From a virus (Duplodnaviria; Heunggongvirae; Uroviricota; Caudoviricetes), in IMG/VR virus record IMGVR_UViG_2541047790_000011: a stretch of DNA of 22,955 bases; one strand, 5' to 3'. Within the stretch, counting starts at the first letter, position 1; each line of letters starts with the position of its first letter. Below the pieces are notes generated by a model. The model was not told where the DNA came from. It made no database searches and worked only from the letters and a program-made list of their open reading frames with translations. Positions 8,389 to 22,955 of the stretch are shown piece after piece. Position numbers and translations under genes: made by a program.

Positions 8389-8949
8389 ATGAAAAACACC
8401 GATTTTGAAATCCGCACATCTGAACTGACCGCCAGCAATAAAAAGCTGGTGGGGTATGCCGTTCGCTGGAACAGCCTTTCAGAAATTATCTGGGACGAAT
8501 TCCGCGAACAGTTCACGCCGGGGGCTTTTGCTGACTATCTGGCGACGGGTAATGATGTGCGCTGCCTGTATGAGCATGACTATACCCAACTGCTGGGGCG
8601 CACCAAATCCGGCACTCTGGTACTGACTGAGGATAACACCGGGTTACGTTTTGAACTGACACCGCCGGATACCCAGCTTGGAAAAGATGTGCTTACGCTG
8701 GTGGAGCGTGGCGACATTACAGGAATGAGCTTTGGTTTTCGCGCATTATGCGAGGAGTGGAGTATCGCGCAAAAACCGTATCTGCGTACCGTAACCGCCG
8801 CTGAACTCCGTGAAATCACAATAACGTCGATGCCTGCTTATCCAGAATCTGGCGTGGAGATTGCCCACCGTTCGTTGTTTGCACAGCACCCTGAATTACG
8901 TCCGACAGGAAATAATCTTCATCGCTGGTCTGAGCTGGCGGGGTTGTGA
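8389..8949 (+). CDS. Prohead (head maturation) protease, HK97 family
   Basis: 186-aa product with motifs typical of HK97-type prohead proteases (GYAVRWN, GAF, CLYEHD, GMSFGF, MPAYPESG). GGAG 8 nt upstream of the ATG. Confidence 0.85.
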   Translation: MKNTDFEIRTSELTASNKKLVGYAVRWNSLSEIIWDEFREQFTPGAFADYLATGNDVRCLYEHDYTQLLGRTKSGTLVLTEDNTGLRFELTPPDTQLGKDVLTLVERGDITGMSFGFRALCEEWSIAQKPYLRTVTAAELREITITSMPAYPESGVEIAHRSLFAQHPELRPTGNNLHRWSELAGL

Positions 8950-8950
8950 T

Positions 8951-10165
8951 ATGTGGTGGCCTTTTAGTCGTAAAAAAAGCGAGCAGCGTAACCTGTCCAT
9001 TGATGATTTTCTGGCGCTGTCCGGCGTACCGAATACCGGATCCGGAGAATATGTTTCTGCCGGGACGGCTGAATCATTGCCTGCAGTGATGAATGCGGTT
9101 TCTGTCATCGCTGAGGCGGTGGCCACGATGCCGTGTTATCTGTATCTGGTACGTAATGACAAGGGCAGGGAGGCGCGGGAATGGCTGGACAGTCACCCGG
9201 TAGATATTCTGCTGAATGAGCAGCCTAATTCGTGCCAGACACCTTACCAGTTTAAACGCACAATGATGCGTCACTGCCTGCTGAACGGTAACGCCTATGC
9301 GGTTATTGAGTGGGGGCAGGACGGGCAGCCAAAATCACTTCATCCTTATGCGCCGGGGTGTGTTGTACCGGAACGCACAGGCGCACACAAATACCGCTAT
9401 ACCATCACCGAACCCTGTACAGGAACGGTGCGCACGTATTTACAGGAAGAAGTTCTGCATCTCCGCTATGCCTCGGATGATGGCTTTCTGGGGCGTTCCC
9501 CCGTCACGATTTGCCGTGAGGCGCTGGGGCTTGGCCTTGCTCAACAGCGTCACGGAGCCAGCATTATGAAAGATGGCATGATGGCGGCAGGGATTATCAC
9601 GTCAGGCGAATGGCTGGACGGCGTGAAAGGTAAACAGGCATTGGATGCTCTGGAACGCTACAAGGGGGCGAAAAATGCCGGAAAAACGCCAATCCTTGAA
9701 GGGGGCATGGATTACAGGCAACTGGGAATGAGTAACCAGGATGCGGAATGGCTGGCCTCCCGTCGCTTCTCCATTGAAGACATCGCCCGCATGTTCAACG
9801 TATCGCCTATTTTTCTGCAGGAATACAGCAACAGCACCTACAGCAATTTCAGCGAGGCAAGCCGCGCGTTTCTGACCATGACAATGCGCCCGTGGCTGGC
9901 GAACTTCGAACAGCAAATCAAGGCCGCTTTGCTGGTGGCTTCTCCCGTACCTGGTACCCGTTATCTGGTTGAGTTTGATTCAGCCGATTTATTACGCGCC
10001 ACACCCACCGAACGTTATGCCACGTATGAGAAAGGGATTAAGAACGGGATCATGAATCCGAACGAAGCCCGTGAGCGTGAGGGTATGCCGCCGCGTGAAG
10101 GTGGTGATGAGTTCAGCCAGGCATGGAAACAGACTGTGGAAATTAAAGGGAGAAAAGATGAGTGA
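8951..10165 (+). CDS. Phage portal protein, HK97 family
   Basis: About 405 aa from the ATG at 8951, immediately after the protease stop. Size and conserved-looking segments (for example EDIARMFNVSPIFL) fit portal proteins. The ORF track start at 8861 overlaps the protease. Confidence 0.85.
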   Translation: MWWPFSRKKSEQRNLSIDDFLALSGVPNTGSGEYVSAGTAESLPAVMNAVSVIAEAVATMPCYLYLVRNDKGREAREWLDSHPVDILLNEQPNSCQTPYQFKRTMMRHCLLNGNAYAVIEWGQDGQPKSLHPYAPGCVVPERTGAHKYRYTITEPCTGTVRTYLQEEVLHLRYASDDGFLGRSPVTICREALGLGLAQQRHGASIMKDGMMAAGIITSGEWLDGVKGKQALDALERYKGAKNAGKTPILEGGMDYRQLGMSNQDAEWLASRRFSIEDIARMFNVSPIFLQEYSNSTYSNFSEASRAFLTMTMRPWLANFEQQIKAALLVASPVPGTRYLVEFDSADLLRATPTERYATYEKGIKNGIMNPNEAREREGMPPREGGDEFSQAWKQTVEIKGRKDE

Positions 10166-10460
10166 AGCCAAAATTACACCTGATGAAGTCAGGGCACATC
10201 TTCGACTTGATGATGATTTATCCGGTGAAGGCGAACTTCTGAAAATGTATACCGATGCGGCGCTGGAAGCCTGCCAGAAGCATATCGGGAAACGTTTTGA
10301 AGACGGGCTGGAATTTACCCCGGCAATGCGTGTTGGTTGCCTGATGTACATCGCTTTCCTGTACGAGAACCGGGAAGCGGTTTCACCAGTGGAGCACTCG
10401 GAACTGCCTATGGCTATTTCTGCGCTCTGGTCAGTTTATCGTGACGTAGGGGTGTACTGA
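10158..10460 (+). CDS. Head-tail connector / adaptor protein (gp6-like)
   Basis: About 100 aa starting MSEAKITPDEVRAHLRLDDDLSGEGELL, which is the characteristic N-terminus of gp6-like head-tail connectors. AAGGGA upstream; overlaps portal end and HNH start. Confidence 0.65.
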   Translation: MSEAKITPDEVRAHLRLDDDLSGEGELLKMYTDAALEACQKHIGKRFEDGLEFTPAMRVGCLMYIAFLYENREAVSPVEHSELPMAISALWSVYRDVGVY

Positions 10461-10900
10461 TGCCGTGGCAACCATTAAGGCGATGCACTGAGCCTGGCTG
10501 TAATAAGCGCGTGAAGTCCGGCAAGTGTGAAGAGCACAGGCGGGCTGCATGGCGTGCAGAGGATGCCAGACGGGGACACCGCCGCGCGCGCGGGTATTCC
10601 CGACAGTGGGACAAATACCGCGCCCTGTACCTGAGCAAAAACCCGTTATGCGTGAGTTGTCTGGCTAAGGGGATTTATACGCCAGCTCTTGTGGTGGATC
10701 ACATCATTCCCATCAATGGCGGCGGTGATGTTCTCTTCTGGCCTGAGTGGAACCACCAGGCATTGTGCCAGACGTGCCACAACCGTAAGACGACACGGGA
10801 AGATCCCGCCACGAAAGCGAACCGTAAGGCGGGCATGTATCGCGATCAGGAAGAACGGGCGGCACACCGTAACGACTGGATGTATGGCGATGATGACTGA
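10460..10900 (+). CDS. HNH endonuclease (terminase-associated)
   Basis: 146-aa product with cysteine clusters and the HNH core (VVDHIIPINGGG ... NHQALCQTCHNRKT). Lies immediately upstream of terS/terL, as in cos-packaging HK97-like phages. Confidence 0.85.
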   Translation: MPWQPLRRCTEPGCNKRVKSGKCEEHRRAAWRAEDARRGHRRARGYSRQWDKYRALYLSKNPLCVSCLAKGIYTPALVVDHIIPINGGGDVLFWPEWNHQALCQTCHNRKTTREDPATKANRKAGMYRDQEERAAHRNDWMYGDDD

Positions 10901-11188
10901 ACAGGAGCAAAACAGGCTGATACGTGGGTTGATAAGGCAGCGTGACACATGGAAGACACAGGAGACAGGGCACAAAGCCAACAGGACAGGGCGCACAAAA
11001 CGCACCACAGCGAAGCGATTAACCGACCGTGACCGCGAGGTCATGGAATGTTTTCGCAATCGCTGGTGAGGCCGTCAGAGGGGGTGGGGGTGGTTTTCAG
11101 GACGAAACCGTCCCTGCCGGACACCGACCGCCTCCCCAAATTTTTATGCACGGGAATTTTTTGAAAAATAATCTGACGAAAAATAAGC

Positions 11189-11545
11189 ATGGCAAGACCA
11201 CCGAAAGCCCCCGCCTACCTGGATGATATCGCCGTGAAGCAGTGGCGGGAAAAATCGCGGCAGCTTGCGGAACGGGGAGACCTGACCCCCGCCGACTGGA
11301 GCAATCTGGAACTGTATTGCGTCAACTACTCCATTTACCGGAAAGCCGTTGCAGACCTTGCGGCGCGCGGGTTCAGCATTGTTAACAGTCAGGGCGGCGA
11401 GAGCAGAAACCCCGCATTAAGCGCAAAATCCGACGCTGAAAGAGTGATGATAAAAATGGCCTCCTTGCTCGGTTTTGACCCGATAAGCCGCCGTAAAAAT
11501 CCACCGGAAACAGAAGAAGAGGACGAGCTTGACCGCCTGGAATAA
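11189..11545 (+). CDS. Terminase small subunit (P27-like)
   Basis: 118-aa product whose pattern (W---L-ERGDLTPAD---LELYCV-YS-YRKA ... acidic C-terminus) resembles P27-family small terminases; immediately precedes the large terminase. Confidence 0.75.
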   Translation: MARPPKAPAYLDDIAVKQWREKSRQLAERGDLTPADWSNLELYCVNYSIYRKAVADLAARGFSIVNSQGGESRNPALSAKSDAERVMIKMASLLGFDPISRRKNPPETEEEDELDRLE

Positions 11546-13190
11546 GTACGCAGAAGACGTAAAAACGGGCAAAATTCCGGCCTGTAAACGGCTGAAACAG
11601 GCCGTTAAACGGTACTTTTCGGACCTTGAAAGCCCCCTTTACACGTTCGATCGTGAGGTTGTGGAGCGGTTTATTGCCTTTTCCAGGGTGTGCGCGCACG
11701 TAAAAGGGCCGATGCGTGGCAGACCCATTGAGCTGGAGCCGTGGCAGCAGTTCGCCTTTGCGTGCATCCTCGGCTTTAAGGTTAAGGCCACCGGACGGCG
11801 CAAATACACGAGCGCCTTTATCGAAGTGCCGCGCAAAAATGCGAAATCCACGACCGCCGCGATTCTGGCTAACTGGTTTCTGATTATGGAGAACGGTCAG
11901 CAGGATATCTACACCGCAGCGGTGAGCCGTGACCAGGCGCGGATCGTCTTTGATGATGCGCGTCAGATGTGCCTTTTATCCCGACCGTTACGCAGGCGGG
12001 TGAATATTCAGGCGCATAAGGTGATACACCCGAAAACCAACAGCCTGTTAAAGCCACTGGCAGCAAAAGCGGCAACCATTGAGGGGACAAACCCGAGTCT
12101 TGCCATTGTGGATGAATATCACCTGCACCCAGACAACGGGGTTTATTCCGCACTTGATATGGGGATGGGCGCACGTCCCGAAGGGCTGTTATTTGCCATT
12201 ACCACATCGGGCAGTAACGTCGTTTCAGCCTGTAAGCAGCACTATGATTATTGCTGCCAGATCCTGGACGGCGAAGAGGTCAACGATTCAATTTTTGTAC
12301 TGATTTACGAACTGGACGACGAAAACGAGGTTGATGATCCGGCGATGTGGATAAAGGCTAACCCTAACATCGATGTTTCCGTCGATCGTGAAAAACTGGC
12401 CTCAACCATCCAGAAAGCGCGGGGTATTCCGTCGCAATGGGTGGAAATGCTCACCAAGCGATTCAATATCTGGTGTCAGGGGGCTACGCCGTGGATGGGT
12501 AACGGTGCATGGGCGGAGTGTGCCGGAACGTTCGCGGAGGCGGATTTATACGGGCAGGAGTGCTACGCGGGGCTGGACTTATCATCAACCAGCGATATTT
12601 CCAGCGTGTGCTATGCCTTCCCGGTCGGTAAAAAGATTATGCTGGTTTCCCGTCACTATCTGCCGGAATTTCAGCTACAGAATCCCGCCAATAAAAACCG
12701 CGCCATCTATCGCCAGTGGGTAAAGGCGGGCTGGATACGCACAACACCGGGTGACTGCATTGATTATGACCGTATCCGTGATGACATCATGGCGGATGCA
12801 GAGAATTTCAATATCAGGCTGGTGGGCTTCGATACATGGAACGCCACGCACCTGAGGACGCAGTTACAGGGCGCAGGATTTGAGGTGGAGCCGTTCCCGC
12901 AAACCTACCTCAGATTCAGTCCGGCGGCGAAATCGTTCGAAGTTTTTGTTAACCGGAAGGTGATTGTGCATCGTGGTGATCCGGTGCTGGCCTGGTCAAT
13001 GAGTAATGTTGTGATGCAGAGTGACGCGAACGCCAATATCAAGCCGAACAAGAAAAAATCATCCAACAAGATAGACCCGAGCGTTGCGGCGCTGATGGCG
13101 TTTGGCACATTCCAGGCAGAGCACGAGGACTTTGCATTCGATATGAGCGACAGCCACAAAGAGCGGCTTGCGGCGTTTGATGGGGTATGA
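11529..13190 (+). CDS. Terminase large subunit
   Basis: 553-aa product with an N-terminus typical of Terminase_1-family large subunits (TAWNKYAEDVKTGKIPACK), an ATPase region and a C-terminal nuclease region. The only in-frame start near the N-terminus is TTG at 11529, overlapping terS; the start codon is uncertain. Confidence 0.85.
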   Translation: MTAWNKYAEDVKTGKIPACKRLKQAVKRYFSDLESPLYTFDREVVERFIAFSRVCAHVKGPMRGRPIELEPWQQFAFACILGFKVKATGRRKYTSAFIEVPRKNAKSTTAAILANWFLIMENGQQDIYTAAVSRDQARIVFDDARQMCLLSRPLRRRVNIQAHKVIHPKTNSLLKPLAAKAATIEGTNPSLAIVDEYHLHPDNGVYSALDMGMGARPEGLLFAITTSGSNVVSACKQHYDYCCQILDGEEVNDSIFVLIYELDDENEVDDPAMWIKANPNIDVSVDREKLASTIQKARGIPSQWVEMLTKRFNIWCQGATPWMGNGAWAECAGTFAEADLYGQECYAGLDLSSTSDISSVCYAFPVGKKIMLVSRHYLPEFQLQNPANKNRAIYRQWVKAGWIRTTPGDCIDYDRIRDDIMADAENFNIRLVGFDTWNATHLRTQLQGAGFEVEPFPQTYLRFSPAAKSFEVFVNRKVIVHRGDPVLAWSMSNVVMQSDANANIKPNKKKSSNKIDPSVAALMAFGTFQAEHEDFAFDMSDSHKERLAAFDGV

Positions 13191-13480
13191 CGAGAATGAG
13201 CGAAACCGAACTACTAAAAATAATCCGCCGTGTTACCGGAGCCAGCCAGACAGCAGACAAACAGGAGGCCACGCAGCCGGACAGCGTGATAGCCGAAAAT
13301 TACGCGCGTGTGGTGGCTGAGGTGATGCGCCGTGACGGTATTGAGCTTAACGGCGTGGATATGCGCAACATACGAACCAGAGTCCTTGAGTTGCTGGCAT
13401 ACCGTCGCCGTTCTCAACAACGGAGGGAGAGCGCGAAAAATACTTATCAGTGGAAGAAGCCGGAACGGTTGCGGCGGTAA
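13187..13480 (+). CDS. Hypothetical protein
   Basis: 97-aa ORF whose start overlaps the terL stop (ATGA); last gene before the island boundary region. Confidence 0.45.
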   Translation: MTRMSETELLKIIRRVTGASQTADKQEATQPDSVIAENYARVVAEVMRRDGIELNGVDMRNIRTRVLELLAYRRRSQQRRESAKNTYQWKKPERLRR

Positions 13481-13593
13481 CTTGCAGATATTCCCGATAA
13501 CGTAAAATTGCGTTGGCTGGCAGAGTGCAAATTTGCACGATGGCCTAACCCATTGATTGTTTCGGAAACCTCAATTTGAGGAGGCCGGACAGC

Positions 13594-14757: not shown

Positions 14758-17034
14758 ATGCTCAATCAAGAACTGGAACTCAGTTTAAATATGGCTTTCG
14801 CCAGAGCGCGCGAGCACCGTCATGAGTTTATGACCGTCGAGCACTTGTTACTGGCGCTGCTCAGTAACCCATCTGCCCGGGAGGCGCTGGAAGCGTGTTC
14901 TGTAGATTTGGTTGCGCTCCGTCAGGAACTGGAAGCCTTTATTGAACAAACCACACCCGTTCTGCCTGCCAGTGAAGAGGAGCGCGACACACAGCCGACG
15001 TTGAGTTTTCAGCGTGTACTGCAACGTGCGGTCTTCCATGTCCAGTCCTCCGGTCGCAATGAGGTTACCGGTGCAAACGTTCTGGTCGCTATCTTTAGCG
15101 AACAGGAGTCGCAGGCGGCATATCTGTTGCGCAAACATGAAGTCAGCCGTCTCGATGTGGTGAACTTTATCTCTCATGGCACGCGTAAAGACGAGCCGAC
15201 ACAGTCTTCTGATCCTGGCAGCCAGCCAAACAGCGAAGAACAAGCTGGTGGGGAGGAACGTATGGAGAATTTCACGACGAACCTGAATCAGCTTGCGCGA
15301 GTGGGCGGAATCGACCCACTAATTGGTCGTGAGAAGGAGCTGGAGCGTGCTATTCAGGTTCTCTGCCGTCGCCGTAAAAACAACCCGCTGCTGGTGGGGG
15401 AGTCTGGTGTCGGTAAAACCGCGATTGCGGAGGGGCTTGCATGGCGAATTGTTCAGGGCGATGTGCCGGAAGTGATGGCTGACTGTACGATTTACTCTCT
15501 CGATATCGGTTCCCTGTTAGCGGGCACAAAATATCGCGGCGACTTTGAAAAACGTTTTAAAGCGTTGCTCAAGCAGCTGGAGCAGGACACTAACAGCATC
15601 CTGTTTATTGATGAGATCCACACCATTATCGGTGCGGGTGCAGCGTCTGGTGGCCAGGTCGATGCGGCTAACCTGATTAAACCGTTGCTCTCCAGCGGTA
15701 AAATCCGCGTAATTGGTTCGACAACCTATCAGGAGTTCAGCAACATTTTCGAGAAAGACCGTGCTCTGGCGCGTCGCTTCCAGAAAATTGATATTACTGA
15801 ACCGTCAATCGAAGAAACTGTTCAAATCATCAATGGCCTGAAACCGAAGTATGAAGCGCACCACGACGTGCGTTATACCGCAAAAGCGGTGCGTGCGGCG
15901 GTAGAGCTGGCGGTGAAATACATTAACGATCGTCATCTGCCGGATAAAGCGATTGATGTTATCGACGAAGCGGGCGCTCGCGCACGTCTGATGCCGGTAA
16001 GCAAACGCAAGAAAACCGTTAATGTGGCGGATATTGAATCCGTGGTGGCCCGTATTGCACGCATTCCAGAGAAGAGTGTTTCTCAGAGTGACCGCGATAC
16101 CCTGAAAAACCTCGGCGATCGCCTGAAAATGCTGGTCTTCGGTCAGGATAAAGCCATTGAGGCGCTGACTGAAGCCATTAAGATGGCGCGTGCAGGTTTA
16201 GGTCACGAACATAAACCGGTCGGTTCGTTCCTGTTTGCCGGCCCTACTGGGGTCGGGAAAACAGAGGTGACGGTACAGCTTTCGAAAGCGTTGGGCATTG
16301 AGCTTCTGCGCTTTGATATGTCCGAGTATATGGAACGCCATACCGTCAGCCGTCTGATTGGTGCGCCTCCGGGATACGTTGGTTTTGATCAGGGCGGTTT
16401 GCTGACTGATGCGGTCATCAAGCATCCACATGCGGTGCTGCTGCTGGACGAAATCGAGAAAGCGCACCCGGACGTGTTCAATATTCTGTTGCAGGTGATG
16501 GATAACGGTACGCTGACCGATAACAACGGACGCAAAGCGGACTTCCGTAACGTGGTGCTGGTGATGACCACTAATGCCGGGGTACGGGAAACTGAGCGCA
16601 AATCCATTGGTCTTATCCACCAGGATAACAGCACCGATGCGATGGAAGAGATCAAGAAGATCTTTACACCGGAATTCCGTAACCGTCTCGACAACATTAT
16701 CTGGTTCGATCATCTGTCAACCGACGTGATCCATCAGGTGGTGGATAAATTCATCGTCGAGTTGCAGGTTCAGTTGGATCAGAAAGGTGTTTCTCTGGAA
16801 GTGAGCCAGGAAGCGCGTAACTGGCTGGCCGAGAAAGGTTACGACCGGGCAATGGGCGCACGTCCGATGGCGCGTGTCATCCAGGACAACCTGAAAAAAC
16901 CGCTCGCCAACGAACTGCTGTTTGGTTCGCTGGTGGACGGCGGTCAGGTCACCGTCGCGCTGGATAAAGAGAAAAATGAGCTGACTTACGGATTCCAGAG
17001 TGCACAAAAGCACAAGGCGGAAGCAGCGCATTAA
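14758..17034 (+). CDS. clpA: ATP-dependent Clp protease ATP-binding subunit ClpA
   Basis: 758 aa from [24 protein letters not shown], with two AAA+ modules (Walker A GESGVGKT and GPTGVGKT). GGGGGAGG precedes the ATG at 14758; the ORF track start at 14743 is 5 codons upstream. Confidence 0.95.
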
Positions 17035-17057
17035 TCTGATTGTCTGGTAGGTTGGTG

Positions 17058-17096
17058 AAGTCCGTAATCTCGTCAGGGGTTACGGACTTTTTATTT
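17058..17096 (+). terminator. Rho-independent terminator of clpA
   Basis: Stem aagtccgtaa (17059-17068) / ttacggactt (17080-17089), followed by a T-run. Confidence 0.6.
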
Positions 17097-17246
17097 ATGG
17101 GGGGAGGAGGTTCAGACCCTTTTTTTGATGATGATGGTAAGTTATTGATAATTAGTGCTGCGGGTAGGTAAGGATAAAAAAGGGTGGCAGCAGGAGATTG
17201 AGATGGTTTTGCTTTATTAACAACGGGCTAAACGTGTAGTATTTGA

Positions 17247-17334
17247 GTTCACTGCCGTACAGGCAGCTTAGAAATTGCCGCGGATCCTGTCTGCCAATAA
17301 TGACAAGTTCACTGCCGTACAGGCAGATAAAATG
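17247..17334 (+). CRISPR. Orphan type I-F CRISPR remnant (two repeats, one spacer)
   Basis: 28-nt repeat GTTCACTGCCGTACAGGCAGCTTAGAAA at 17247-17274, 32-nt spacer ttgccgcggatcctgtctgccaataatgacaa at 17275-17306, and a second repeat at 17307-17334 identical over the first 20 nt but degenerate in the last 8 (ATAAAATG). Repeat matches the type I-F consensus from memory. No cas genes in the window. Confidence 0.7.
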
Positions 17335-17336
17335 CG

Positions 17337-17364
17337 AAAAAAAAGCCCGTACTTTCGTACGAGC
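17337..17364 (-). terminator. Rho-independent terminator of serW
   Basis: On the minus strand: GCUCGUAC-GAAA-GUACGGGC hairpin followed by eight U, directly 3' of the tRNA. Confidence 0.55.
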
Positions 17365-17377
17365 TCTTCTTTAAATA

Positions 17378-17465
17378 TGGCGGTGAGGGGGGGATTCGAA
17401 CCCCCGATACGTTGCCGTATACACACTTTCCAGGCGTGCTCCTTCAGCCACTCGGACACCTCACC
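17378..17465 (-). tRNA. serW: tRNA-Ser (anticodon GGA)
   Basis: Reverse complement reads GGTGAGGTGTCCGAGTGGCTGAAGGAGCACGCCTGGAAAGTGTGTATACGGCAACGTATCGGGGGTTCGAATCCCCCCCTCACCGCCA: 88 nt with long variable arm, GGTTCGAATCC T-loop, anticodon GGA and encoded CCA. Confidence 0.93.
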
Positions 17466-17830
17466 AAATTGTTTTTTTGCCTGACCTCATGGGGGGCAAC
17501 GGGGCGCTACTATAGGGAGTTGGAATAAAACGGTCAAGAAGAATTTTTATGATAATTATTGTTTGCTCATACTGTAAACAAGTTGTGCAGTATATCTACA
17601 TCTGATGCGCCGCGCGATAAATAAGCCGCAATCCGTGAGATAAATGGACACAGTGCGGCTTTTCAGATACGGAAAAGGAATTACAGATTATCAGTCGTAA
17701 GCAACCCACGCTTACTGGCAAGGATGGTTTACAATGCTGAAAGCGCCTCCCGGCAATACCGCCAATCATCACTCAAACAGAAAAAATTATTGCTCATGGT
17801 TCACTCCGGTAATGAATCGTTTTACAGGCG

Positions 17831-18424
17831 TCATTCGGTCATGGAAAGATTGCTGATTTCGGTAATCCCGGCAATTTCCTCGCTGACGGATTTCAGTTCG
17901 ATTTCCAGCTTGGTGCGTTCGTTGACCAGCGCAGCTACGGTCTTACGGCGGTCTGCCAGTGACGGAAGGTTGTCATTGCCCCACGCCACGCTTTTATCCT
18001 TTTTGAGCGCTTCGGTCAGGCGGGTGGCGACCACATCCGGGAAGAAAAAGCATAACTTACGCATAACCGTCATCCCGACATCAGCCAGGGGGACATTCCC
18101 GCTCAGTCCCACCAGACGGAACAGACCAGAAATATCACCATTCTCATTTTCCAGATTACCCCAGCGTTCGGCGTTCCCTTCACTGCCGGAACCGTTGCAA
18201 AGAGCAAGCTTGAATGACTGATATTCTTCCTGCCCGAATCGCTCAATATATTCAGGAATAAAGGAACAGTAATCATTAAGCGATAATGGCATATCCTGTA
18301 ATGTGGTTATTTCACTGTTAATCTCTCCAATTCGGCGGGAGAGCTTTTCTTTCTGCTCATTCAGGGAGGCAAGATTATTTTTAACGGCGTTCAGTGCTTC
18401 GATAAGGGAAATAACAGGTTTCAT
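17831..18424 (-). CDS. Hypothetical protein (third gene of Mor-headed operon)
   Basis: 197 aa from MKPVISLIEALNAVKNNL; the start lies 1 nt after the upstream gene's stop. Coiled-coil-like N- and C-terminal segments; no recognised family. Confidence 0.5.
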   Translation of the reverse strand: MKPVISLIEALNAVKNNLASLNEQKEKLSRRIGEINSEITTLQDMPLSLNDYCSFIPEYIERFGQEEYQSFKLALCNGSGSEGNAERWGNLENENGDISGLFRLVGLSGNVPLADVGMTVMRKLCFFFPDVVATRLTEALKKDKSVAWGNDNLPSLADRRKTVAALVNERTKLEIELKSVSEEIAGITEISNLSMTE

Positions 18425-18425
18425 T

Positions 18426-19040
18426 TTAATAACTCCAGATGAAAGGCGTGGTGAGGGCGAGCGCTTCAGAATAGGAGACATTGCAGGCTGCACTTACGTC
18501 CTTTATTAAAAGGTGCTGTGCTGCCCTCTGACTGTCTGCTATGCCGTCAAACTCTGAAAAATGAACGTGTGATTCATTGTGATAAAAGCAAACCGGGTAA
18601 CAGCTTTCCATAAATTCTACCTGCGCCAGTCCCTTTACTGCTGGAGGCTGTGAGCCGAGAAAACCGATATGCTGAAGATACCAGGCACCGATTCCTGCCG
18701 GGTTGTTCGCTTCGCCGGGTCTATAAAATGCCGCAGACACTTTCCTGTAACGCCCTGCGCGTACCAGTCCCAGCAGGGTTTCATCAGGCTTAACCAGCGC
18801 GAAAAGCCTGCCGTTTTTACTTATCAGCCCAGTTGTTTCACCATAAGATGGGCTGTTGCTGGCCGGATGTCCAATACACAGCGGCGCACCATAACCCGCA
18901 CGATGATAGCCGTTATAGGCTGCCGCCATGTTGTCGATATCCTCGTCGGAAAAGGCAATTTCCTGCCCAGCCATCGTGATATGCGTTCCCGCCCGGAATA
19001 TCTCGATAGTTTTCCAGTTGCCAATATCGATATCTTTCAT
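18426..19040 (-). CDS. Hypothetical protein (second gene of Mor-headed operon)
   Basis: 204-aa ORF tightly coupled to both neighbours. The N-terminus (W-TIEIFRAGTHI--AGQEI-FS-EDIDN-AAAYN ... PLCIGHP) loosely recalls Mu-like prophage protein I / DUF-type phage proteins; this is a weak, unverified impression. Confidence 0.5.
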   Translation of the reverse strand: MKDIDIGNWKTIEIFRAGTHITMAGQEIAFSDEDIDNMAAAYNGYHRAGYGAPLCIGHPASNSPSYGETTGLISKNGRLFALVKPDETLLGLVRAGRYRKVSAAFYRPGEANNPAGIGAWYLQHIGFLGSQPPAVKGLAQVEFMESCYPVCFYHNESHVHFSEFDGIADSQRAAQHLLIKDVSAACNVSYSEALALTTPFIWSY

Positions 19041-19041
19041 T

Positions 19042-19569
19042 TTAAATTACCCCATATTTCGCATCGCGCTGTATTTTATTTTTCTTGCGTTCGGCGGCTA
19101 TAATCTGATAAATACACTGAATGGAACGCTTGTATTTTTTTGATAGTTCAAAAATAGAGATACCCTGATAAAAATCAGCCAGTATTTTTGAGTTCCTGTC
19201 GAAAGTGTTTTTTGATGCGCCCATAGGGATATATATATTCCCCCTGAAAAATGTATTCCTGAGACATTCAGTGATGGCAGGAGAAAGTTTTTCGGCTTGC
19301 GAACAGAGGTAAGGTATGGTTCCTAATGTCTGCTCAATAGATTCAGTCAGCTCCTGTAGGAAGCGAACTGCCTTAGGTGCTCTTTCTCGGTGTTCAGCCA
19401 TATACCCCTGGCAGCCACCAAGGTTATCAGAGATACCCAACACAATATGATTAGCCGCACTGCAGGACTGTTGCCGTGAATACCCTTTGTTGATCAGAAA
19501 CACTTCTATAGCATCGCCCATTGCCCCCAAAGTATCGGATGAAGCATACAATCCTTCTCTTGTAATCAT
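19042..19569 (-). CDS. Mor-family transcriptional activator-like protein
   Basis: C-terminal region RGNIYIPMGASKNTFDRNSKILADFYQGISIFELSKKYKRSIQCIYQIIAAERKK parallels the Mu Mor/C activator HTH region (G-VYIP-G ... R---I---F-G-----L---Y------IY-I---RK). GAGGTG lies 5-6 nt upstream of the ATG at 19569; the ORF track GTG at 19575 is an alternative. Confidence 0.6.
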   Translation of the reverse strand: MITREGLYASSDTLGAMGDAIEVFLINKGYSRQQSCSAANHIVLGISDNLGGCQGYMAEHRERAPKAVRFLQELTESIEQTLGTIPYLCSQAEKLSPAITECLRNTFFRGNIYIPMGASKNTFDRNSKILADFYQGISIFELSKKYKRSIQCIYQIIAAERKKNKIQRDAKYGVI

Positions 19570-19809
19570 AATCACACCTCGTCAACGATAAATATGCGCA
19601 CATAAAGCCTTTATAAAGCTTTATGAGGTGCATTACTGGTGTCATTCCATGATGCACACCACCAACAACCAAAAACGCCTTACAGAGCATTTCAATGTGT
19701 GTTATTAATGTGGATTAAGAATATGGTTTTGGGGCGAGAATGTTTTTTAATGTACTTTAGATATGACGAAGCCCCTCAAAGGAGGGGCGAGGCGGAAAAC
19801 TATTTATAA

Positions 19810-20088
19810 CTATTCCTTACTCTCCTGATCAAGACGATTACCTATCAGGTTAATCATTGCCATTGCATCAGATAGCAGGATACTGTTAACAAGTGCTAAG
19901 GGCGTCTGTGTTGATTTATCATCAACGGCAACAGAAAGTTCATCATTCAGGCGACGAACGGCCTCAAGACGGCTAAAGGCGGCTTCCCATATTTCTGTAC
20001 TCGGGGCATCAGCATTAACAAACAAAACATCGTAAGACGTTCCCTGAGACTCATGAGGACAGGCTATGAAATTAGCAGTAGCTTTCAT
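19810..20088 (-). CDS. Hypothetical small acidic protein (second gene of 2-gene operon)
   Basis: 92-aa ORF; its start overlaps the upstream gene's stop (ATGA at 20085-20088). No recognised family. Confidence 0.5.
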   Translation of the reverse strand: MKATANFIACPHESQGTSYDVLFVNADAPSTEIWEAAFSRLEAVRRLNDELSVAVDDKSTQTPLALVNSILLSDAMAMINLIGNRLDQESKE

Positions 20089-20564
20089 TTTGCAGTCCTC
20101 CGGTTAATTATAAATTTATTATAAATTTCATAACTTGCGGCATTCAGTCCTGGACTGTATTTATCTGCCAGTGAACAGGCAATGAATTCTTCAATCGATT
20201 TAGTCAGTATATCAAGCTCAGTTGTTCCGGAATAACGCAAGGCCACTCGAAATAATTCTCGGCAGTATGTTTTTTTATGGTCAATATTTTGTAACTGCTG
20301 TTGCGGTATATCACGACGTTCAAATATATTAACAAATGCATTAAGCGGGAAGCTATGATTTGCCTGCGGATATTGCTCATAGGAAAACACCACAGTATTA
20401 CCGTTGCATTCTTTAACAATTGCATTCATACCGCTGTTAATTTCAATATACCACTCTCCTATACATGGAGGATTGATAGCTTCGCTCTGTGCCTTGATTA
20501 AAGGTAAGCGGATAGTATCCACTTGGTTTGTTGCAACTGAATCGTTAGACTTGTCGTTAGCCAT
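20085..20564 (-). CDS. Hypothetical protein (first gene of 2-gene operon)
   Basis: 159 aa from MANDKSNDSV with AGGA 8 nt upstream. AT-rich codon usage by eye. No recognised family. Confidence 0.55.
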   Translation of the reverse strand: MANDKSNDSVATNQVDTIRLPLIKAQSEAINPPCIGEWYIEINSGMNAIVKECNGNTVVFSYEQYPQANHSFPLNAFVNIFERRDIPQQQLQNIDHKKTYCRELFRVALRYSGTTELDILTKSIEEFIACSLADKYSPGLNAASYEIYNKFIINRRTAK

Positions 20565-20597
20565 GACTGTTATCCTACACATAACGGTTTTTGGTTA

Positions 20598-20701
20598 GGC
20601 CATAGCAAGTGCTCGCAACATTTGTTATGGCCGTTTCTTTGGCCCTTTCCCTGTGATAAGGTATAGACCTAACAAGTAAACACTAAGCCATAGGTCTATA
20701 C
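20598..20701. promoter_or_regulatory. Divergent promoter region with two inverted repeats (candidate operators)
   Basis: IR1: ggccatagcaa (20598-20608) / ttgttatggcc (20622-20632), one mismatch. IR2: gtatagacct (20661-20670) / aggtctatac (20692-20701), perfect, 21-bp spacer. Located between the minus-strand 2-gene operon and the plus-strand RHH gene. Confidence 0.35.
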
Positions 20702-20752
20702 ATGTCAACTATCTTGAGAGATAAAAGCCAAAAAGGGGCAGGGAAAGCCCCC

Positions 20753-20893
20753 ATGTTTAACGTTAGAATATCGCCAGATTTGAAAGAACAGTTTGAAATA
20801 CAAGCAAAAAAAGAAGGTGTTAGCTTGGGAAACTGGCTCAAGGAACTTGGCAGGGCGGAACTAAAACGTAAGGGGATCGAGCCGAAAGGGTGA
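20753..20893 (+). CDS. Ribbon-helix-helix (CopG/Arc/MetJ-like) DNA-binding protein
   Basis: 46 aa from MFNVRISPDLKEQFEIQAKKEGVSLGNWLKELGRAELKR: a beta-strand followed by two helices is the RHH signature. AGGGA lies about 9 nt upstream of this ATG. The ORF-track start at 20702 has no Shine-Dalgarno and abuts IR2. Confidence 0.55.
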   Translation: MFNVRISPDLKEQFEIQAKKEGVSLGNWLKELGRAELKRKGIEPKG

Positions 20894-20919
20894 TGTTTTA
20901 GTCTCCCTGTGTTTGATTA

Positions 20920-21753
20920 AAAGCGAAATCGCTTTCACATTTAAAGTTCAAGATAGCCAATGCCATCACCAAAGCGGACAGCGCTGTCCGCTTTTCATCA
21001 GTAAAAACCACATATTTACGCCAAAACGCTCAACGTTGAGCGCTACGTACCCCGGCAAAAGCGCAAGCGTCTGCGCTTTTGGTAACAAGCAATCAGCATT
21101 TAAATGCGGACAACGTTGACCGTTTTGAGGAATCAATGTCGGCTGAGCAAAAACGACAACGTTGTCGTTTTTAAAACGGCAAGCGCTTACCGTTTCAGAT
21201 TATCGAGGCGGTAAGAGTTTACCGTTTGGTGTCAATTATGTTCAATAAGCGAAAACGTTTTCGCATTTTCTCACCTAACGCGGCAAACCTTCTTTGTCCT
21301 AGATGGAAAAACGACAGCGCTGTCGTTTCTAATCCGGGGTTCCAAACCGCTCAGCGCTGAGCGGTTCTGTGGCTTTCTTACAATCCAAATCCGCCAACGT
21401 TGGCAGATTTGCAAATATCACATATGATTGATGGTCCCGAATCACAAATGTCCCAGCGCGGGGATATTTCAAGTAGTTCAATCATTTCATGCGCTGGCAG
21501 TCATCTCCAAAACTGCGAACGCCTGCCCTTTCAGTACAGTTTGGTAATATATATTGGTAAGCTTTACTTGTAGAAATATAAAACTCCAAAAGCGCCAGCG
21601 CTGGCGCTTTGTAAGGCCAGCAATATCATTCCCAGCGCTGGAATACTAAAAGGCGGATTCCTGCATCTTAATTTGAGATGGAATCTCATGGCAATCCAGT
21701 GTTAACGTAGGGTTTTAGCCAGTACTCACGACTTGAATATGCCAGCGCTGGCA
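20920..21753. repeat. Array of at least 15 sequence-diverse palindromes with shared architecture (A-run, CG-rich arms around a CAGCGCTG or CAACGTTG centre, T-run)
   Basis: Perfect palindromes read directly: 20971-20994 (24 nt), 21027-21042 (16), 21149-21172 (24), 21249-21264 (16), 21309-21328 (20), 21345-21366 (22), 21393-21404 (12), 21589-21610 (22), 21632-21641 (10), 21740-21753 (14). Near-perfect: 20920-20935, 21057-21080, 21107-21122, 21174-21195, 21209-21224. No convincing ORF covers the array. Confidence 0.6.
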
Positions 21754-21990
21754 CATTTGAAGTCTGGTAACATCAATAATCTAATGACACCTGATGTAAT
21801 TTTGAACCCTGAACTGGAATCAACCCCAAATTTAATGGCAACAGCTATCAGCCAGATTACTGATGAACGTGACCTGCTGAACCAATTACTTGACCAAGCA
21901 CAGATGGCCGATGCATTCGAGCAATTTTCCCGAACGGTTCGGACTTCTAAACTGGCTTTTGTGAAGGAAAACAAGGGCTTTGTTGAATAA
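21739..21990 (+). CDS. Hypothetical ORF whose 3' end runs into the IS903 terminal inverted repeat (possibly insertion-truncated)
   Basis: About 83 aa from ATG 21739 (MPALAHLKSG...); the last codons (GGC TTT GTT GAA TAA) are IS903 end sequence. The start codon sits inside the 14-bp palindrome 21740-21753. Coding status uncertain. Confidence 0.3.
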   Translation: MPALAHLKSGNINNLMTPDVILNPELESTPNLMATAISQITDERDLLNQLLDQAQMADAFEQFSRTVRTSKLAFVKENKGFVE

Positions 21991-22955
21991 ATCAGATTTC
22001 GGGTAAGTCTCCCCCGTAGCGGGTTGTGTTTTCAGGCAATACGCACGCTTTCAGGCATACCTGCTTTCGTCATTTTGTTCAGCGCTCGTACCAGGGCCAT
22101 AGCCTCTGCAACCTGACCATCGTAGTCACGCAGTGTCAGTGAACCTCCGAACAGCTGTTTTACCCGGTACATCGCCGTTTCCGCTATCGAGCGACGGTTA
22201 TAATCTGTTGTCCATTTCCACCGCGCATTACTCCCGGTCAGCCGCTGATTCGCAACAGCACGGTTACGGTCTGCATATTCACCGGGCCAGTAACCCGCGC
22301 CTTTTCGGGGCGGGATAAGCGCGCTGATTTTCTTACGCCGCAGTTCATCGTGACAGAGCCGGGTGTCGTAAGCGCCGTCTGCCGATGCTGCCCTGATTTT
22401 TCTGTGAGTCTGCCGGATAAGACCCGGGAAGGCTTCTGAGTCCGTCACATTGTTCAGCGACAGGTCTGCACAGATGATTTCATGTGTTTTGCTGTCAACT
22501 GCCAGATGCAACTTTCGCCATATACGACGGCGTTCTTTGCCGTGTTTTTTGACTTTCCATTCGCCTTCACCAAAGACCTTCAGCCCGGTGGAATCAATCA
22601 CCAGATGCGCGATTTCACCTCGGGTGAACGTTTTGAAACTGACATTAACCGACTTTGCGCGCTTGCTGACACTGGTGTAATCCGGGCAGCGCAACGGAAC
22701 ATTCATCAGTGTAAAAATGGAATCAATAAAACCCTGTGCAGCCCGCAGGGTCAACCTGAACACGCGTTTAATGACCAGAACGGTGGTGATGGCGAGATCA
22801 GAATAGCGCTGAGGTCTTCCCCGTGATGAAGGCGTTGCCGACTCATACCAGGCCTGAATAGCTTCATCATCCAGCCAGAAAGTTATGGAGCCACGGTTGA
22901 TGAGGGCTTTATTGTAGGTGGGCCAGTTGGTGATTTTGAACTTTTGCTTTGCCAC
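21976..22955 (-). mobile_element. IS903 (IS5 family), partial - runs off the right window edge
   Basis: Terminal inverted repeat GGCTTTGTTGAATAAATC begins at about 21976; the internal transposase is recognisable as IS903 from memory. The ~1.06-kb element would end beyond base 22955. Confidence 0.88.
22032..22955 (-). CDS. IS903 transposase
   Basis: 307-codon ORF starting MAKQKFKITNWPTYNKALINRGSITFWLDDEAIQAWYESATPSSRGRPQRYSDLAITTVLVIKRVFRLTLRAAQGF, near-identical to the IS903 transposase as recalled. Start codon (GTG in this frame) is at the very last bases of the window. Confidence 0.9.
   Translation of the reverse strand: MAKQKFKITNWPTYNKALINRGSITFWLDDEAIQAWYESATPSSRGRPQRYSDLAITTVLVIKRVFRLTLRAAQGFIDSIFTLMNVPLRCPDYTSVSKRAKSVNVSFKTFTRGEIAHLVIDSTGLKVFGEGEWKVKKHGKERRRIWRKLHLAVDSKTHEIICADLSLNNVTDSEAFPGLIRQTHRKIRAASADGAYDTRLCHDELRRKKISALIPPRKGAGYWPGEYADRNRAVANQRLTGSNARWKWTTDYNRRSIAETAMYRVKQLFGGSLTLRDYDGQVAEAMALVRALNKMTKAGMPESVRIA

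Follow-up and report, generated by a model that had tools for sequence, protein, structure and literature searches.

The window analysed here is the whole 22955-nucleotide stretch of the IMG/VR virus record IMGVR_UViG_2541047790_000011, and it ends within a copy of the insertion sequence (IS) IS903B. With a probability of roughly 0.9, this copy arrived by simple insertion in a non-autonomous Mu-like element of 5.3 kb, which had itself moved by transposition to the serW-infA spacer of an Escherichia coli chromosome of the sequence type 131 (ST131) type, and the IS truncated the remnant of an open reading frame (ORF) with no loss of DNA. In the proposed order of events, the Mu-like element would have transposed into the spacer first. 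IS903B would then have inserted at codon 79/80 of a phage early-gene remnant 180 codons long, its right inverted repeat (IRR) supplying four codons and a stop, and would thereby have pushed two conserved 13-bp palindromes from 76 to 1142 bp apart. The IS insertion is ordinary in itself; the host element appears to be new and is apparently undescribed.

The IS903B-type sequence, a member of the IS5 family, occupies positions 21976-22955 on the minus strand, with the first 980 of its 1057 bp inside the window. The sequence from 21976 onward is GGCTTTGTTGAATAAATCAGATTTCGGG..., and the IRR (21976-21993) reads GGCTTTGTTGAATAAATC. In the E. coli ZH063 chromosome the full IS measures 1057 bp (16977-18033 of locus L003) and is bounded by perfect 18-bp terminal inverted repeats of this sequence, GGCTTTGTTGAATAAATC. 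Its transposase ORF (22032-22955, minus strand, cut by the window end) matches the NCBIfam model NF033579 for IS5-family DDE transposases (E=2.8e-105, 351.9 bits against a cut-off of 140), and the 50-nt left (IRL) and right ends each match the printed ends of IS903B at 50 of 50 positions (PMC10569121). The copy thus shares with IS903/IS903B (IS5 family, IS903 group) the 1057-bp length, the 18-bp perfect inverted repeats, the 9-bp target duplication and a transposase of about 307-322 amino acids. Nothing about it is notably different; its target here is a phage-derived gene fragment without a known phenotype, and inactivation of genes by IS903/IS903B insertion has been reported in Klebsiella for mgrB, cirA and wbaZ. 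Many plasmids of Klebsiella, E. coli and Enterobacter carry IS copies with 100% identity to window positions 21976-22955, and RefSeq and PLSDB annotate these copies as IS5-family transposase genes. At least 5000 records match this segment, 318 of them at 99% identity or more among the matches listed.

A perfect 9-bp target-site duplication, GAAAACAAG, is present on both flanks of the IS in complete genomes, the left copy at 21967-21975 and the right copy directly after the IS, outside the window (L003 18034-18042). Window positions 17000-22955 align with the ZH063 chromosome with 0 mismatches over 5956 bp. An IS-free version of the locus was sought by removing the IS and one copy of the duplication in silico and running the resulting query against all complete E. 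coli genomes. Among the 23 that contain the locus, it is split in two by the IS in 21 and uninterrupted in 2 (SCU-387 and LR882997, with 1412 bp at 100% identity). The IS-free and interrupted alleles are colinear and 100% identical on both sides of the junction, downstream of which the IS-free copies keep the same 940 bp to the end of the Mu-like element. Because the IS copy is complete and its 9-bp duplication intact, the IS deleted nothing: the insertion is clean and ordinary, a simple transposition with zero deletion.

The ORF that now ends in the IS (21739-21990, plus strand) is a chimera of 83 codons, comprising 79 native codons of a fragment of the phrog_4623 gene family followed by GFVE and a stop that are read from the IRR (GGC TTT GTT GAA TAA). 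In the IS-free allele the frame continues for a further 101 codons, 180 in total. In a larger collection, the interrupted 83-residue product occurs on 592 contigs and the uninterrupted 180-residue product on 121. These results bear out the initial annotation where it placed the start of the IS903 repeat at about 21976 (21976 exactly), had the repeat supply the end of this ORF, looked to a target-site duplication at the far end of the IS, which is indeed found directly after it, and turned to uninterrupted homologues, in which the same gene continues for 101 codons rather than ending naturally at the insertion point. Its placement of the IS in the 3′ end of the ORF does not hold, since the insertion point is at codon 79/80 of 180. 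Nor did the IS remove downstream partner genes, as had been suggested, given a complete IS, an intact duplication and an IS-free allele that is colinear and identical on both sides. The claim that the original gene is truncated stands in that the IS-free copies read on, but falls short in that the gene had been reduced to a fragment before the insertion, because even the IS-free ORF has 180 codons as compared with 307-335 amino acids in the phage homologues.

The fragmentary character of the ORF is apparent at both of its ends. The uninterrupted frame matches the phrog_4623 profile with E=1.2e-57 over profile positions 12-151 of 329, and lacks the family's first 12 or so codons and its C-terminal coiled-coil half. 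On the 5′ side, DNA homology to intact phrog_4623 genes begins only at about 21781. On the 3′ side it stops at CAGAAAAGCGCC, the left arm of a palindrome, AAAAGCGCCAACGTTGGCGCTTTT. Beyond this palindrome, part of a DUF3102-type gene that contains an in-frame stop is followed by an IS91-like zinc-finger fragment, after which the Mu-like element ends. The ORF is thus a gene fragment bracketed by two palindrome units and broken before the IS arrived. Its protein shares 64-80% identity with proteins of Pseudomonas B3-like phages, and about 71-74% with homologues from Klebsiella and Enterobacter. An AlphaFold model of its product has a confident core at residues 45-135 or so (pLDDT 82-95), for which Foldseek found no match in the PDB at E<=0.001. 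Pfam and NCBIfam gave no match for the ORF, and the sole PDB sequence match is non-significant (E=0.42).

Genes of the phrog_4623 family lie immediately upstream of the transposase genes A and B both in enterobacterial Mu-like prophages and in B3-like phages of Pseudomonas, among them JD18, Fc02 and JBD25; A is present in 76/80 and B in 74/80 of the phage loci. The type of phage taken here as the helper of the Mu-like element has a B3-like layout of the early operon (PMC5977238). Compared with the phrog_4623/DUF3102 early genes of B3-like (Beetrevirus) and enterobacterial Mu-like phages, the 79 (180) codons of the window ORF align with the N-terminal domain. The fragment matches the family profile but is not of full length, is not followed by transposase genes A and B, and has array-type palindromes on both flanks.

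A further feature shared with these early genes is a pair of identical, perfect 13-bp palindromes 76 bp apart, which was found in each of the phrog_4623 loci fetched first (9/9) and in 74/80 IMG/VR loci (L021-L100). The arms of the palindromes, which co-vary within a pair, vary among phages (CCGAAC, CCGCAC, CCAAAC, CAAGAC and others), such that the encoded amino acids shift and the palindrome is preserved. In the window the first copy, CCGAACGGTTCGG, lies at 21930-21942, and the second, identical copy is beyond the IS (L003 18073-18085). The IS-free allele carries the pair at the 76-bp spacing of the family members, and the IS, sitting between the two copies, has extended this to 1142 bp. The pair looks like a putative set of cis-acting sites.

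Two other candidates for relatives of the ORF were set aside. The "Gp27 family" gene of a Citrobacter plasmid relative is not its continuation, as the proteins are unrelated and the loci diverge past the palindrome array. Superinfection-exclusion activity has been described for "gene 10" of phage Fc02 (PMC9936078). The Fc02 homologue of the ORF is Fc02_13, beside transposase A, whereas gene 10 follows ner, and no function is carried over from gene 10 to the window ORF.

It could be that the 165-180-codon ORF is a working short gene consisting of the N-terminal domain only, or a carrier of the paired cis-sites, and that the IS inactivated the Mu-like element or stopped its movement in ST131. 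This alternative, which we consider rather unlikely, would account for the presence of the same truncated form with the same tail in a second lineage of the element, in which the central segment of the ORF has only about 78% DNA identity, and it is consistent with the confidently predicted core domain. The exact 76-bp spacing in 74/80 phage homologues of a pair that the IS splits also speaks for it, as does the occurrence of IS-free copies at six or more sites and of the IS-bearing copy at one. Clonal descent within ST131, however, would equally place one site in many genomes, and since a single recombination event may have brought in the divergent patch, the open frame is weak evidence of selection. 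In addition, relatives of the element that have a gp27-type gene and lack both the ORF and the palindrome pair still occupy different sites.

The preferred reading, a simple insertion into an already broken gene, places the IS within a larger unit whose boundaries can be drawn precisely. The Mu-like element begins at 17603 with its left end, TGATGCGCCGCGCGATAAAT, runs through 22955 and ends outside the window, at window-equivalent 23976, giving a length of 6374 bp with the IS and 5308 bp without it. It is preceded by the left copy of a 6-bp target duplication, TACATC (17597-17602). The insertion point lies in the serW-infA spacer of the ST131-type chromosome, 137 bp from the tRNA-Ser gene, with the spacer sequence duplicated over 6 bp; 5157/5426 E. 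coli genomes have the empty spacer in one piece. From left to right, the unit comprises its left end with a tape-measure gene remnant (17603-17900, minus strand; internal deletion of about 2.4 kb, junction at about 17738-17741), two conserved genes (17831-19040, minus strand) for hyp197, a coiled-coil protein, and hyp204, similar to the N-terminal portion of a head protease/scaffold of the Mu gpI type, a gene for a Mor-family transcription activator (19042-19575, minus strand) and a ribbon-helix-helix (Arc/HicB-like) gene (20702-20893, plus strand) transcribed towards the palindrome array and the ORF. A hairpin with a 14-bp stem, GGCCATAGCAAGTG..., lies at 20598-20632, in the divergent promoter region that separates the leftward genes from the ribbon-helix-helix gene. 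The only Rfam match, a sub-threshold one to an R1162-like antisense RNA (20557-20633; score 31.7 bits, gathering score 55), overlaps this hairpin and is probably due to chance.

Copies of this unit recur elsewhere. IS-free 5308-bp copies flanked by the duplications CTTATC, GTTATC, GTGAGG, CTTTCC and ACAGAA are found at nadC-ppdD, in three prophages (L182-L184) and in the cai operon, and 7.7-kb variants are flanked by AGTGAA and ACTCAT. Perfect 6-bp duplications are thus seen on eight copies, each with its own, and a further one, CCATGT, on a full-length prophage. Because the 5308-bp variant with the tape-measure deletion occurs at six sites, the tape-measure gene is dispensable for movement. 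We conclude that the segment is a currently mobile, non-autonomous Mu-like element.

Relatives in E. coli AW1.7 and MS 115-1, on a Citrobacter and an Enterobacter plasmid, in Intestinirhabdus, Erwinia tracheiphila and Tenebrionibacter, and in a metagenome-assembled genome share a common plan of about 7.7 kb, the family as a whole spanning 5.3-7.8 kb within the Enterobacterales. A tape-measure homologue, hyp197, hyp204, Mor and two more genes lie on one strand and the ribbon-helix-helix gene is divergent, followed either by a palindrome array and a short protein resembling the N terminus of Mu gp27, or by a full phrog_4623 gene without an array. In the gp27-type relatives (L007 9640-9975, L002 8450-8770, L013), a unit of about 330 bp resembling a miniature inverted-repeat transposable element, with terminal inverted repeats CTGTTAGTGGATGCGTGACGCGC..., stands directly after the array. 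Ratios of nonsynonymous to synonymous substitution (dN/dS) among element copies are 0.03-0.26 for three element genes, indicating purifying selection. A tblastn search with helper A and B proteins found no match in the window or in 10 related element copies, and the element contains no integrase. Since every relative is likewise without transposase genes, their absence is a family trait and not damage caused by the IS.

That observation bears on a second alternative, in which a deletion adjacent to the IS, or recombination between two ISs, removed the rest of the gene and the downstream partner genes of the array. Such an event might be suspected from the window alone, which ends inside the IS and leaves its far side out of sight, and from the absence of the transposase genes that follow the homologue in phages. 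It is made very improbable by the full 1057-bp IS with identical 9-bp duplications on both flanks, by the identity of the IS-free copies across the junction and through the same 940 bp to the element end, and by the lack of transposase genes in all relatives. We regard as equally improbable that the segment is an ordinary decaying prophage or a tRNA-linked genomic island at serW. It does adjoin tRNA-Ser, a classic island site, and it holds fragments of phage-like genes as well as a tape-measure gene with an internal deletion. But there is no integrase, the insertion lies 137 bp away from the tRNA and duplicated 6 bp of spacer sequence, identical copies occupy unrelated sites, each with its own 6-bp duplication, and the genes, which are under purifying selection, form a set conserved across genera. 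That the ORF naturally ends near the insertion point, with the IS merely abutting it, as might be supposed from the RefSeq annotation of the 252-nt ORF as a hypothetical protein, can practically be dismissed, the last four codons and stop being IS903B IRR sequence, the uninterrupted allele 101 codons longer and the homologues 307-335 amino acids in length.

The likely source of mobility is indicated by a 38-kb Mu-like prophage of E. coli whose ends resemble those of the element: identity is complete over the first 20 nt at the left end and 91.5% over 190 bp at the right end. This prophage, flanked by its own duplication, CCATGT, carries a DDE transposase (A), an ExeA-like B protein, Gam, gp16, Mor and a full myovirus virion module. 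Two of the element's proteins have counterparts there, the tape-measure protein at 71% identity over 700 residues and hyp204 at 39% identity to the N-terminal part of the gpI-like protein. About 96 E. coli genomes hold the prophage-type right end, and ST131 strains carry the prophage; in ST131 strain 2822 (L018), the full-length Mu-like prophage sits inside a lambdoid prophage. We infer that the element, which lacks the DDE transposase A and ATPase B of an autonomous Mu-like transposable phage, owes its movement to transposase provided in trans by a phage of this kind, either resident or incoming.

There is a precedent for such an arrangement in laboratory mini-Mu, in which Mu ends without transposition genes are mobilised by MuA and MuB supplied in trans (PMC3145075). 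The two have in common the termini of a transposable phage, the lack of a transposase and duplications at many unrelated sites; the window element differs in being natural, in being conserved across the Enterobacterales with its own genes under purifying selection, and in carrying a palindrome array. Mu duplicates 5 bp of its target, and the element 6 bp rather than 5. Like the phage satellites (P4-like elements, phage-inducible chromosomal islands (PICIs) and capsid-forming PICIs), it is small and lacks its own replication and virion machinery. It also has homologues of helper morphogenesis and regulation genes (hyp204, the tape measure and Mor, and in relatives the domain resembling the gp27 N terminus). 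In contrast to P4 and PICI satellites, it has neither an integrase nor an att site and inserts by transposition. By its gene content the element is a candidate satellite. The literature searched contained no description of a natural Mu-dependent satellite, of this element or of its helper-matched array, nor anything relevant on DUF3102 or the palindrome sequences.

Several points weigh against the overall account of an IS903B insertion into a helper-dependent element. The name IS903B rests on the 50-nt ends, the length, the inverted repeats and the target duplication rather than on a full-length ISfinder reference. No IS-free copy was found at serW-infA, and it is from the identity of the two alleles that the element is placed first and the IS second. 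Some carriers seem to be without a helper-like end, SCU-387 having one matching place only. Finally, the true start of the ORF is uncertain between the ATG at 21739 and the alternatives, a TTG at 21733 and an ATG at 21784, as a relative (L019) has no equivalent of the ATG at 21739 and starts at the equivalent of 21784.

Upstream of the ORF is the palindrome array (20920-21757), whose units take the form AAA-arm-A[AG]CG[CT]T-arm'-TTT. The ATG of the ORF lies inside an array-type palindrome (21736-21757), AATATGCCAGCGCTGGCACATT, with a perfect core, TGCCAGCGCTGGCA, and arms that match those of the single palindrome, AAATGTGCCAGCGCTGGCACATTT, of some helper-type phages. A further unit, AAAAGCGCCAACGTTGGCGCTTTT, stands about 230 bp past the IS within the ORF continuation (L003 18259-18282). 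The palindrome at 21736-21757 is therefore the last in the window and not the last in the locus: the initial annotation was correct in starting the ORF inside a palindrome and mistaken in taking that palindrome as the final one. The IS does not mark the right edge of the array, as had also been claimed, because this array-type palindrome lies beyond it.

Across seven arrays, base pairs are preserved in 86.5% of cells, compared with 33-41% in slid controls. Pairs changed on both sides number 12, whereas slid controls gave 0-4 of them and shuffles 5.8 +/- 1.7. Deletions within the arrays of relatives run from palindrome centre to palindrome centre (shared CCAGCGCTGG) and leave hybrid palindromes, as seen in L008 9440-9470 relative to L007 and in L019 3607-3640 relative to L010 8088-8260, the L019 deletion being the one that removes the ATG corresponding to window position 21739. 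As RNA, the palindrome hairpins are stable, at -10 to -15 kcal/mol. As intrinsic terminators they were set aside, since only one meets the T-tract rule of the terminator scan. Rfam held nothing for the array or the ORF, and PADLOC found no defence-system family.

Similar palindromes occur singly in phages. A DUF3102-type gene is the alternative to the phrog_4623 gene at the same position in helper-type phages, upstream of the transposase, and in 72/80 phage loci (L101-L180) it contains exactly one array-type palindrome, at nucleotide 350 or thereabouts, in at least 12 arm variants. No array was found in any phage locus examined, and no second copy of the helper's palindrome was found elsewhere in the 38-kb prophage. 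Half of the palindromes in seven element arrays (28/56, a count that includes the extra ST131 unit past the IS) share an exact 6-nt arm with one of the 12 phage variants, the chance expectation being well under 1% each, and 45/56 share the inner 5 nt. The window array itself matches phage arm variants in 7/10 palindromes, as does the unit beyond the IS. By blastn, the matches between the array and helper genes are confined to the 22-28-bp palindromes, and as none was found for the spacers, these are not pieces of helper genes.

Conceivably, the element is a natural satellite of Mu-like phages that borrows the transposase of its helper, with the array being a multi-specificity collection of a cis-element that each helper carries once. 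We put this forward tentatively, as a possibility that is less likely than not. In such a satellite the array would sense, titrate or silence many helper variants, acting perhaps as a decoy for a factor that binds hairpins or cruciforms, or through self-complementary RNA that pairs with the helper's early transcript. The fast change of palindrome arms among helpers would then represent escape, and by splitting the adjoining gene fragment and its paired sites, IS903B may have frozen the ST131 copy in place.

A separate island lies at the other end of the window (1-13500), upstream of clpS-clpA. Its genes, for a tyrosine integrase (1-1239), a D5-type primase/helicase, a single-stranded DNA-binding protein (SSB), a major capsid protein, a prohead protease, a portal protein, an HNH protein and a large terminase, form a set typical of a capsid-forming phage-inducible island. 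The island is absent from ZH063, where cspD-yljB precede clpS. As the integrase at 1-1239 belongs to this island, it is not evidence for an integrase in the Mu-like element.

The IS903B insertion is of little import in itself, being that of a very common IS into one more gene fragment, and its chief use is as a lineage marker within ST131, part of which carries it. The main interest lies in the compact, transposase-less Mu-like element that contains it, which has conserved genes and can be shown to be moving in E. coli, and whose array mirrors, unit by unit, the single site of the phages. If the link between array and phages is functional, it would give a parasitic element a new means of recognising many variants of its helper or interfering with them, and would suggest that the early operon of transposable phages holds a cis-element so far overlooked.

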